From the NCBI GenBank assembly GCA_017618175.1, contig JAFZUT010000020.1, positions 5,728 to 69,727 on the forward strand: a stretch of 64,000 nt of DNA, read 5' to 3'. How positions within the stretch are numbered: position 1 is the first letter of the stretch; every line of letters begins with the position of its first letter. The position numbers and the translations under genes were made by a program. This stretch comes from Alphaproteobacteria bacterium (GTDB lineage Bacteria; Pseudomonadota; Alphaproteobacteria; Rs-D84). The notes under the pieces were generated by a model. It was not told the DNA's origin and searched no databases. It was given only the letters and a program-made list of their open reading frames with translations. Of the stretch, positions 31,258 through 32,226 are shown piece after piece.

Positions 31258-31334
31258 CGCGGGGTAGAGCAGTCCGGTAGCTCGTCAGGCTCATAACCTG
31301 AAGGTCGGTGGTTCAAATCCATCCCCCGCAACCA
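31258..31334 (+). tRNA. Initiator tRNA-fMet (CAU)
   Basis: CGCGGGGTAGAGCAGTCCGGTAGCTCGTCAGGCTCATAACCTGAAGGTCGGTGGTTCAAATCCATCCCCCGCAACCA is near-identical in layout to E. coli metZ/W/V. It has the C1:A72 mismatch and three G-C pairs closing the anticodon stem. Confidence 0.88.
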
Positions 31335-31346
31335 ATTAAATAAAAA

Positions 31347-31375
31347 TTGCACCAAAAACGGTGCAATTTTTATTT
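31347..31375 (+). terminator. Rho-independent terminator TTGCACC-AAAAAC-GGTGCAA + T-run after tRNA-fMet
   Basis: Hairpin followed by TTTTTATTT. Confidence 0.6.
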
Positions 31376-31506
31376 AACGTGTGTTGTGTTGGGTTTGAAC
31401 CACCGAGATAAGGTGGTTCACCACAAGCGAAAGCCAGACGGAAGTATGGCGGTCGCCCAACAGGCGATGAGCGCAGTTGGCGCGAAAATAAAATTTTTGC
31501 GAAATC

Positions 31507-31517
31507 ATCCCCCGCAA
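31507..31517. repeat. 11-bp copy (ATCCCCCGCAA) of the tRNA-fMet 3' end
   Basis: A direct repeat of 31321-31331. It may be chance or an old att remnant. Confidence 0.3.
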
Positions 31518-31545
31518 TACCCACAAAAAGTTCGAAAGTTGATAT

Positions 31546-31570
31546 TAAAAAAGTGGCGAAAAATCGCCAC
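31546..31570 (-). terminator. Terminator hairpin GTGGCGA-AAAAT-TCGCCAC with flanking A/T runs (ends the NADAR gene)
   Basis: A 7-bp stem, 18 nt after the stop at 31588. Confidence 0.5.
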
Positions 31571-31587
31571 TTTTGAACCATTTTCTA

Positions 31588-32046
31588 TTATTTTTGAAGT
31601 TCTTTCCTGATTTTCATCAAGATATTTCCTATACGATTTGTGCCACTACCTATACCAAAACCACACTTATAACACACCGGACAAGATTTTATTAATATCG
31701 CTTCACCTGTCTGTTTTAACATTTCTGCAACATCTGGATTTTGAGAAAATTTCGCACGCAGCCCATCTTCCATAATATCAAATTTATTCTCATCAAAATT
31801 CTTTCTGCGATTTATTTTATATTCTGGTGTTTTAGTAATAAGTCGCGCATCATCGGCATTTTCCAGATTTAAAATATTATTAAAACGCTCGTCATTGGCA
31901 TAAAATTTCATTGCCTGATAATAGTGTTCCACACTTGGAAATACATAAATATCACCATCAACAGACATCTTTATTGGAAATTTAGCCAAAGGACTTAAAA
32001 ACCAATATTTTCCAGTTGGAGTACAAAATCTAATCTCTTTCGGCAT
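31588..32046 (-). CDS. NADAR-domain protein (YbiA-like N-glycosidase / ADP-ribose-processing family)
   Basis: FLSPLAKFPIKMSVDGDIYVFPSVEHYYQAMKF matches E. coli YbiA FSNFAAWPIKVDGKTWPTSEHYFQAQKF, and RAKFSQNPDVAEML and GSGTNRIGNILMKIR align with later YbiA segments. Confidence 0.7.
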   Translation of the reverse strand: MPKEIRFCTPTGKYWFLSPLAKFPIKMSVDGDIYVFPSVEHYYQAMKFYANDERFNNILNLENADDARLITKTPEYKINRRKNFDENKFDIMEDGLRAKFSQNPDVAEMLKQTGEAILIKSCPVCYKCGFGIGSGTNRIGNILMKIRKELQK

Positions 32047-32199
32047 ATAAACACGTATCCTTTTTGTAGATTATATTCTAAACAGTTTTATTTGCAATAA
32101 CATTCTATTTCTATCAATCTCCTGCCCAATATCAACAATTCGGCTCGAGAACAGCATAGCGAAGTTCGAATAACTACAAATTTGCCCGCAGACACCAAC

Positions 32200-32226
32200 G
32201 GTGGCGAGGAAAATCCATCCCCGCGG
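32200..32226. repeat. Degenerate direct copy of the tRNA-fMet T-arm/3' acceptor end (GGTGGCGAGGAAAATCCATCCCCGCGG versus GGTGGTTCAAATCCATCCCCCGCAACC)
   Basis: About 20 of 27 positions are shared, in the same orientation, 866 bp downstream of the tRNA. Together with the tRNA it brackets the NADAR gene. Confidence 0.45.

Follow-up and report, generated by a model that had tools for sequence, protein, structure and literature searches.

A NADAR gene as possible cargo of an integrase-less tandem array behind the initiator tRNA of a gut alphaproteobacterium

We analyze a 64,000-nucleotide stretch of DNA (the window; contig JAFZUT010000020.1) from a Candidatus Enterousia-like gut alphaproteobacterium of the order Rs-D84, in which a gene for a NADAR-domain (YbiA-like) protein lies behind an initiator transfer RNA gene (tRNA-fMet). 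In the reading that we favor, holding it with about as much belief as doubt, small units without an integrase of their own form a tandem array anchored on the 3' end of tRNA-fMet, and one of them, now decayed, carries the NADAR gene as its cargo. As an islet, the NADAR locus is a modest find; the array of structured modules without an integrase is an unusual variant of tRNA islands. Such islands normally carry an integrase, whereas here we see a genus-wide system of very small units behind several tRNAs, with no recombinase in cis in ~100 loci. Unusual as well are the structured modules, which evolve by compensatory change and whose ends are tailored to each tRNA.

For comparison, the window genes were mapped onto 80 species-level loci gathered via a YchF genome scan (handles of the form L011 below), with only ~20 kb of sequence visible per related genome, and ~2 Mb of related sequence was scanned for the modules. 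A pattern scan of metagenomes returned many chance loci, and only the 28 confirmed by nhmmer were kept; one hit, L170, was set aside as an unrelated phage-like repeat. The features around the tRNA are the following.

31218-31245, plus strand: promoter of tRNA-fMet (TTGACA, 16 nt, TATAAT), agreeing with the sigma-70 consensus at 12/12 positions.
31258-31334, plus strand: tRNA-Met(CAT) with encoded CCA, the putative array anchor (ARAGORN; Rfam tRNA, 64.4 bits).
31336-31377: 18-bp, A/T-flanked hairpin of the bidirectional terminator type, directly after CCA (inverted repeat I1, 100% complementary; terminator scan).
31377-31517, plus strand: module A (fold z, nhmmer, covariation), made up of a leader (31377-31393), an antisense T-arm copy (31390-31406), P1 (31394-31420), P2 (31433-31450), P3 (31453-31467), the motif GAGCGCAG (31469-31476), P4 (31481-31501) and a truncated tRNA 3'-end copy (31502-31517) that contains the first repeat.
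31518-31579: remnant of module F with the bidirectional hairpin T2 (31549-31574; inverted repeat I16), a terminator shared with NADAR; 31515-31584 is 91% identical to F positions 45-114 of L094.
31588-32046, minus strand: NADAR (YbiA-like) gene, 152 aa, the putative cassette cargo (open reading frame; Pfam PF08719, E 8.7e-22).
32097-32070, minus strand: promoter-like site of NADAR (TTGCAA, 16 nt, TATAAT), 10/12 consensus positions.
32071-32157, minus strand: element E, a decayed remnant of a small open reading frame (ORF) that has lost its 5' part, carries a frameshift and is fused with module B at the common GAGAAC.
32147-32226, plus strand: 3' part of module B (remnant 32147-32222; terminal hairpin 32192-32204), ending in the second repeat, with 90% identity to module B of L012 (nhmmer E 2e-12).

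An earlier, sequence-only reading of this DNA had described two partial copies of the tRNA 3' end, an 11-mer at 31507 and a 27-nt degenerate T-arm/acceptor copy at 32200-32226. Both copies exist, and aligning the tRNA end against them recovers two exact 12-mers. The first is not an 11-mer but the 12-mer CATCCCCCGCAA at 31506-31517, which matches tRNA positions 31320-31331. The second is present as described and holds the 12-mer AAATCCATCCCC (32211-32222, equal to 31315-31326), with GGTGG and GC flanking it. An analytic first-order model of the window predicts 0.0029 exact matches, 12 nt or longer, to the last 25 nt of the tRNA in the 1 kb downstream; two are seen, so that the repeats stand well above background. 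That earlier reading overlooked an inverted copy of the tRNA T-arm (17 nt, 94%) at 31390-31406.

A skeptic could still hold that the repeats are chance likenesses and that NADAR is an ordinary chromosomal gene, since the T2SSF coding sequence holds a further exact AAATCCATCCCC at 22142 and single 12-mers can thus arise by chance. Two of them on the same strand within 1 kb are another matter, and copies recur at matching positions in dozens of species, where the cores (the tRNA 3'-end copies that close the modules) reach 21 nt; those of the window are truncated or degenerate. We also examined 44 tRNAs with enough flanking sequence in Enterousia loci as a control. A same-strand copy of at least 11 nt of the tRNA's own last 25 nt was found no more than 600 nt downstream for 18 of them, including the window's second tRNA(CAU), tRNA-Gln(ctg) and tRNA-Gly(ccc), and upstream for none; the opposite-strand copies, five in number, are the leader of module A. 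The chance explanation, to which we give practically no credence, is already refuted. As a detail, the T2SSF site extends to a 16-nt sequence, GGAAAATCCATCCCCG (22137-22152, plus strand), identical to the repeat at 32206-32221; it is kept in L011 with one mismatch and was dismissed as a coding-sequence coincidence.

The anchor is, as the sequence-only reading had it, an intact initiator tRNA with its own promoter and terminator. We assign tRNA-Met(CAT) as the initiator because its 1:72 pair is mismatched (C1xA72), a hallmark of bacterial initiator tRNAs, and because the gene begins CGCGGGG. The sequence is identical or 92-100% identical in 40+ related loci, and the hairpin behind its CCA is kept in position in all related loci, with differing sequence. 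An 81-aa ORF on the minus strand (31336-31581), annotated publicly in the same contig (L002, L004), spans the terminator hairpin, module A and F; we judged it most likely spurious because its reading frame is not conserved (L020 uses another frame).

Taken in order, the locus runs from the tRNA and its hairpin through A, the first core, the F remnant with T2, NADAR, the E-B fusion and the second core to p357 and YchF; between the repeats, NADAR and the small-ORF remnant are the sole ORFs. The repeats do bracket the single minus-strand NADAR gene with its own terminator (the hairpin at 31549-31574), as had been proposed, yet the edges of the islet are not clean repeat boundaries. On the left, a deletion between two CAA triplets, judged against L094 and L001, has removed 47 nt comprising CCA and the terminator of F; on the right, E is fused to B. 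As both ends are damaged in this way, the window copy of the NADAR unit is probably fixed in place. Across loci, a terminator-type hairpin, of type term1, D or F, comes after every ...CAACCA, and a module or E precedes many of them; in many loci F turns up again, behind the tRNA, behind module cores and behind E. The repeats of the window are damaged versions of module termini.

Element E occurs in 35 copies in related loci as a ~100-nt block, and intact copies encode ~30-35 aa on the strand opposite the tRNA (...CSVCSSRAELLEIGREIDxLKDKLGL...), with third codon positions varying most (0.366 vs 0.252 and 0.236). Its end on the plus strand is a degenerate-to-exact tRNA 3' end, ...CAACCA, the exact CATCCCCCGCAACCA being found in L173. 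The peptide resembles the N-terminus of XRE-type helix-turn-helix (HTH) proteins and its start overlaps ...CAACCA; examples lie in L016 (12114-12220 and 14243-14350), L020 (~1895-1989) and L094 (~5848-5950).

Comparable tandem units at att-type (attachment) sites are found in several relatives. The array of L163 reads tRNA, term-A-core, term-B-core, F-cargo-E, F, and that of L020 reads tRNA, term-A-core, F-GNAT-E, term-A-core, F', where the A blocks are 99% alike and recur with a period of 944 bp. In L016, 107-nt E repeats enclose a 2-kb island with RhuM and HD genes; the island of L148 measures 2.9 kb and runs from the tRNA to a 48-nt tRNA fragment, and L145 again carries tandem units. The NADAR gene itself sits in such an arrangement in L094, which reads tRNA, F, NADAR, E(...CGCAACCA), F' and an outer-membrane protein, with ...CGCAACCA and F on both sides of the cassette; intact E flanks the cassette there and in L100. 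Bounds like a tRNA 3' end recur around the cassette, which follows tRNA-fMet in L094 and L023 and tRNA-Gln in L100 and L101; in L100, where E is a variant, it is bounded by GATGAC(C/T)CCAGCCA plus a terminator, which is the tRNA-Gln 3' end. Core copies with a T-stem variant foreign to the resident tRNA occur in L049 and L046, which fits transfer between lineages.

The DNA on the 3' side of tRNA-fMet is a hypervariable hot spot across the genus. The sequence-only reading had suggested that the whole interval is accessory, and comparison with relatives supports this. In the closest sampled species, L011 (YchF 95% identical), the order is YchF, 328 bp, tRNA-fMet, 218 bp, DUF374, LpxK, with no NADAR, p357, p122 or p263; its 328 bp are not bare, however, as modules D, partial A and B are contiguous there, with an intact module B directly after A's core. 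In L012-L015, YchF and the tRNA are 1.6-4 kb apart, with other DNA in the interval, and NADAR is missing within 10 kb of YchF both there and in L017-L020. In ~35 species, 71 cargo ORF clusters, mostly singletons, lie between the tRNA 3' end and the VirB4/YchF framework, among them outer-membrane proteins, ABC-F, rfbABCD, GNATs, LrgAB, RhuM and HD-domain proteins, as well as an EcoRI-type methylase with GmrSD/HNH, MatE, a subtilase and methyltransferases. NADAR is behind tRNA-fMet only in the window, L001, L094 (protein 88% identical) and L023 (76%); other homologues are in the tRNA-Gln arrays (L100, L101), directly after nrdDG (L098) and after rpoD (L096). Between the window and L001, identity is 100% across NADAR and only ~75% across module A, which fits allele exchange at the modules.

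How might such an array arise? [quoted passage not shown] Each unit would have arrived by site-specific, Campbell-type recombination in the T-loop-to-CCA segment, bringing a replacement tRNA 3' end and terminator and pushing the former ones downstream. The recombinase would act in trans, since none is encoded in the units. A T-loop sublocation class of tRNA integration was reportedly described by Williams in 2002.

Several known systems resemble this scheme in part. Islands integrated in tRNA genes (tDNA islands) restore the split tRNA gene and leave a displaced fragment (Islander database, PMC4383910). The window locus shares with them the tRNA boundary, the displaced T-loop-to-CCA copy forming a distal repeat, a new 3' end supplied by the insert, variable content that is absent in relatives, and a deviating composition. 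It differs in that there is no integrase inside the island, in that the units are tiny (some ~170 bp and cargo-free), and in that the fragments adjoin a compensatorily evolving hairpin module with an antisense T-arm copy. The closest precedent is in Dehalococcoides, where McMurdie and colleagues (2011, PMC3146451) described tandem ssrA islands with 20-bp repeats from the T-loop's middle, a conserved motif upstream and integrase-less members, which the authors compared to cis-mobilizable elements (CIMEs). Tandem units behind one small RNA gene and a conserved sequence upstream of the repeat are common to both cases. On the other hand, 16 of the Dehalococcoides islands have a serine recombinase (DsiB) module beside attL, of which none is seen here, and here several tRNAs (fMet, Gln, Gly, second CAU) have customised homologous modules. 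Like CIMEs formed by accretion (PMC5704250; ICEberg 2.0, PMC6323972), the locus has att-type flanks without integration or transfer functions and a tandem accumulation of units (in the window, the A unit, the NADAR unit and the B remnant), although no matching autonomous integrative and conjugative or integrative and mobilizable element was identified for window-type units.

The two repeats, in which the sequence-only reading had seen the outcome of integrase-mediated insertion, are not plain decaying att scars: they close conserved modules, and compensatory change maintains the hairpins of these modules. Module A begins with the leader ACGTGTGTTGTGTTGG, followed by the antisense T-arm copy, which pairs with a sense copy of tRNA ~49-57 (P1), then a 65-80-nt insert with P2-P4, and finally the tRNA copy from the T-loop's middle to CCA. 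The fold, which the earlier reading had overlooked, reaches -58.4 kcal/mol for 31378-31520, with z = -5.3 on the plus strand vs z = -3.4 on the minus strand. Copies occur in 22 genome loci and 28 metagenome loci (nhmmer), on the same strand and nearly all 43-45 nt behind tRNA-fMet. In a 16-sequence alignment of module A, 96% of cells form standard pairs, 10 of 19 pairs are changed on both sides, and covariation is 0.412 vs 0.157 in shuffles; none of 500 shuffles reaches 0.412, and slid controls give at most 0.09. G.U pairs appear on the plus (tRNA) strand only, several hairpins have GNRA-type loops (GCGAAAGC, ACGGAAGU), and the sense strand of P1 equals the 5' strand of the resident tRNA's T-stem in 26 of 36 loci, in 4 variants. 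A long leader-to-core closing helix was rejected, as it shows no compensation where the core is AATTCC (L020, L163, L090). In L084, a diverged module A and its hairpin (1361-1700, plus strand) are duplicated in tandem with a 172-bp period, and each duplicate ends in an exact 20-nt copy of its own tRNA variant (AAATCCACACTCCGCAACCA).

Module B occurs in at least 20 further loci, where most copies end in a fuller core and several in ...CCCCCGCAACCA or ...AAATCCATCCCCCGCAACCA. Its closing helix alternates between GCGCGCAG..CGAGCG and GCCCGCAG..CGAGGG, and at least 4 unrelated sequences form its terminal hairpin in different copies. Modules behind other tRNAs share a scaffold (GGTGAGC, GCGAATGAGC, CGAGC, then the core), with ends customised per tRNA, and modules were seen only behind tRNAs or E, nowhere else in the related sequence. 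As judged from alignments, the compensatory changes speak for selection on a single-stranded structure, whether of RNA or of DNA. Enterousia-type genomes measure ~0.75-1.0 Mb (PMC12306168); what non-coding DNA they have is scarce and hence probably not idle.

If the selected structure is RNA, the modules could be tRNA trailers or tRNA-like small RNAs, co-transcribed with the tRNA or processed like it, whose 3' end serves processing, stability or mimicry; NADAR would then simply lie in the one spacious gap between genes that this compact genome offers, with the repeats being RNA features. The compensatory changes in P1-P3, the GNRA-type loops, the strand bias of the fold and of the G.U pairs, the tracking of the resident T-stem by P1, the homologous customised scaffolds behind tRNA-Gln, tRNA-Gly and the second tRNA(CAU), and the terminator-type hairpin after every module all speak for it. 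We nevertheless consider it unlikely: a strong terminator hairpin parts the tRNA from the module, no conserved promoter precedes the module, modules are patchy, with about half of the species having none behind tRNA-fMet, the window's core copy has lost CCA, and its module B is truncated. Nor would RNA function explain cargo cassettes bounded by E or core copies, or cores foreign to their host tRNA. Rfam 15, run with both gathering and E-value cutoffs over the window, the region of the array, six loci of relatives, L163 and the surroundings of the second tRNA(CAU), gave only tRNAs, and all non-tRNA scores for module A, B or the array were far under gathering, so that no family matches. Should the modules be RNAs, they would form an undescribed family of tRNA-linked RNAs.

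If the selected structure is DNA, the modules could instead be selfish repeats, like repetitive extragenic palindromic (REP) sequences or bacterial interspersed mosaic elements (BIMEs), or like miniature inverted-repeat transposable elements, for instance non-autonomous elements of the IS200/IS605 type that a transposase encoded elsewhere mobilizes as single-stranded DNA. Insertion would be into a T-loop-like TTCAA^A, and cargo would be shuffled by homologous recombination between modules. The bodies of A, B and C do lie between a left ...GGTTCA(AA) and a right AAATCC..., the subterminal hairpins are kept by structure and not by sequence, that at the end of B having at least 4 unrelated sequences, the plus-strand-specific structure tolerates G.T pairs, and no recombinase is found in cis. 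Tandem GC-rich D-type units with GTAG lie behind the window's tRNA-Thr(cgt), near-identical term-A-core blocks flank the L020 cargo, and L084 has its tandem 172-bp duplication. We regard this explanation as distinctly unlikely, as genes for TnpA, RAYT or TnpB are not seen in any locus, the modules never occur away from tRNAs or E in ~2 Mb, Rfam models of IS605-type RNAs do not match, and IS200/IS605 elements make no target duplication, so that 20-nt copies of tRNA ends are not created by insertion alone.

The modules may, at a long shot, be folded single-strand recombination sites at which a host recombinase inserts integrase-less cassettes irreversibly behind any tRNA that the module ends copy, and they would then be similar to CTXphi attP(+) or integron attC. 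On the plus strand, the antisense leader would pair with the split sense T-arm/acceptor copy (~49-57 and 57-77), and the ~75-nt hairpin insert would be looped out at the T-loop, rebuilding a duplex replica of the tRNA gene 3' end. Integron cassettes are integrase-less single-gene units that pile up at one site, and their attC is kept by folded single-strand structure. The analogy with them and with Xer-exploiting CTXphi is one of mechanism only: here there are no IntI, no R''/L''-L'/R' boxes and no dif-like site, and the anchor is a tRNA 3' end. A literal attC reading fails in that the junctions, inspected by eye, are ...CAACCA plus a terminator hairpin, not RYYYAAC...GTTRRRY, and IntI is missing; for dif/Xer there is a 7-nt GTTAAAT resemblance only, which is uninformative. 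An IS110 bridge RNA, a TnpB omega-RNA and a retroelement primer-binding site were likewise rejected and kept only as remote analogies, as no cognate protein is present and neither the 20-nt duplications nor the internal T-arm complementarity, which is not 3'-terminal, fits. If true, the folded-site view would give a reduced-genome gut alphaproteobacterium a programmable tRNA-anchored cassette system. The RNA, selfish-repeat and folded-site readings stay alive because the hairpins compensate and P1 tracks a strand that lies outside the identity block.

These same observations weigh against the Campbell-type array of integrase-less units. Compensatory changes in modules A and B are not expected of plain double-stranded att arms, and a simple Campbell model fails to explain why P1 follows the 5' strand of the T-stem outside the 20-nt identity block. 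Many units (term-A-core, term-B-core) are cargo-free, and in the window the limits of the cassette do not coincide exactly with the repeats. Among near-identical genomes, no filled/empty pair with a precise NADAR insertion at the CCA junction was found. The sequence-only reading had proposed integrase-mediated insertion, now without an integrase; the absence holds, but the mediation is only inferred. A crude motif scan of ORFs of at least 150 aa in ~100 Enterousia-type loci (~20 kb per genome) gave no tyrosine or serine recombinase, and none was among 20 cargo proteins run through Pfam. An autonomous relative of the elements was not found either: a scan of viral contigs with a module B 20-mer gave only a chance match, in three contigs of a single phage, inside an ORF and with no flanking similarity. 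If the modules do prove to be recombination sites, streamlined genomes would keep a cassette exchange point without mobile-element machinery.

Structured, GC-rich DNA follows each of the window's four tRNAs, while window genes average ~41% GC. The second tRNA(CAU), elongator Met or Ile2 (16604-16678, minus strand), has a 14-nt copy of its own 3' end, AATCCCTTCGCCGC, at 16402-16415, within a minihelix-like hairpin. The ~200-nt GC-rich segment behind this tRNA (the two together at 16395-16678, minus strand) terminates in that copy, folds at -91.5 kcal/mol (z = -3.45) and holds GAGAACAAGC...GCGCAGTTCGAGCC, motifs in common with module B. In the region 53405-53690 (plus strand), three tandem D-type units (CAGTGCCGCGCCGTAGC ... 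GGCGAAGGCGGGC) with a REP/BIME-like look come after tRNA-Thr(cgt); a D-type unit also follows tRNA-fMet or module cores in L011, L013, L014, L016 and L049. In the region 12560-12716 (minus strand), a GC-rich segment GTGGCCGACAACCACGG... behind tRNA-Thr(ggt) is like a motif of the L090 and L163 arrays.

The cargo is an expressed-looking gene under purifying selection for a protein of the YbiA/NADAR hydrolase fold, and here the domain assignment of the sequence-only reading is borne out. The PF08719 match scores 78.5 bits (gathering 35.1) and covers profile positions 9-163 of 163, and the protein matches E. coli YbiA (PDB 2b3w) with E 5.7e-13 (phmmer). Among 363 homologues, the best 120 are 74-94% identical, and mean column identity in the genus is 85%. 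With the NADAR/YbiA family (PF08719; 2b3w; PMC11125620, PMC11543638), the protein shares a full-length domain match, the conserved FPSVEHYYQ motif and a small, "naked" YbiA size without extension. It is unlike the family in scoring 65.2 bits on TIGR02464 (riboflavin-intermediate N-glycosidase equivalog), under the cutoff of 73.7, in the alignment of its Lys120 to the catalytic Glu, and in its four invariant Cys. The last-strand catalytic residue is Glu in the YbiA family and Asp in the DarT1-linked BC4488 family (PMC11125620). In the phmmer alignment, which has an indel nearby, Lys120 aligns with the Glu of 2b3w LVEHT, and it is invariant in 8 genus members; C8, C122, C125 and C128 are invariant in genus NADARs, the motif being ILIKSCPxCYKCGFG, with CPxCYKC next to Lys120. 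These alignments tentatively suggest a conserved divergent subfamily with Lys for the catalytic Glu, and the genus NADARs may be a metal-binding, catalytically altered one. The subfamily deserves biochemical attention given recent work on the reversal of nucleic-acid ADP-ribosylation.

The proposal that the gene is a remnant of a defence or anti-defence module fared less well. The gene is full-length, strongly conserved genus-wide and not a remnant, and a defence or anti-defence role has no direct support. The antiphage NADAR model NF053876 gives 41.5 bits, far under its cutoff of 240, and PADLOC returned only a weak match for NADAR (candidate PDC-M42C, E 2.4e-8). Unlike the NADARs of DarT1-NADAR and YarT-YbiA pairs, the window gene has no adjacent ADP-ribosyltransferase gene: its neighbours are the small-ORF remnant and p357 (no Pfam or PADLOC match), and none of the adjacent genes codes for DarT, YarT or an ART. 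In relatives, some of the neighbouring cassettes carry restriction-modification or GmrSD genes, which keeps a defence role conceivable. A composition check, which the earlier reading had proposed, shows deviant GC content at third codon positions for NADAR (z = -2.56) and p357 (z = -2.71) relative to 39 window genes, although these are short genes and the evidence is weak.

The accessory genes on either side of the array encode signal-peptide proteins.

32319-33392, plus strand: p357, accessory, between the array and YchF (ORF; no Pfam match).
29861-31025, minus strand: p263 and p122, two accessory proteins with signal peptides, 5' of the tRNA (ORFs; no Pfam match).

The first, p357, is absent from L011 and most relatives, with a 63% identical copy in L012. 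The other two are present in L012 and absent from L011, where the tRNA and DUF374 are 218 bp apart, so that both sides of the tRNA are variable and not the 3' side alone. After their signal peptides, p122 and p263 share the motif TSKSYVD.E...KQ.KI.

One contig that carries this region, L001 (ERZ27256916 k141_445638, a MEGAHIT contig), has the block 205aa-VirB4-VirB3-L36-SufBD-YchF twice at 7447-20153, ~83% identical, the two blocks being set apart by HTH, LrgAB, tRNA-fMet, NADAR and p357. This is either a real segmental duplication in a ~1 Mb genome or a two-species assembly chimera, and, given possible chimerism, no key claim rests on L001 alone. The type IV secretion genes VirB3, VirB4 and the 205-aa partner (35600-38418 in the window) lie just past the hot spot in nearly all species, and may be leftovers of an ancient conjugative element integrated at tRNA-fMet.

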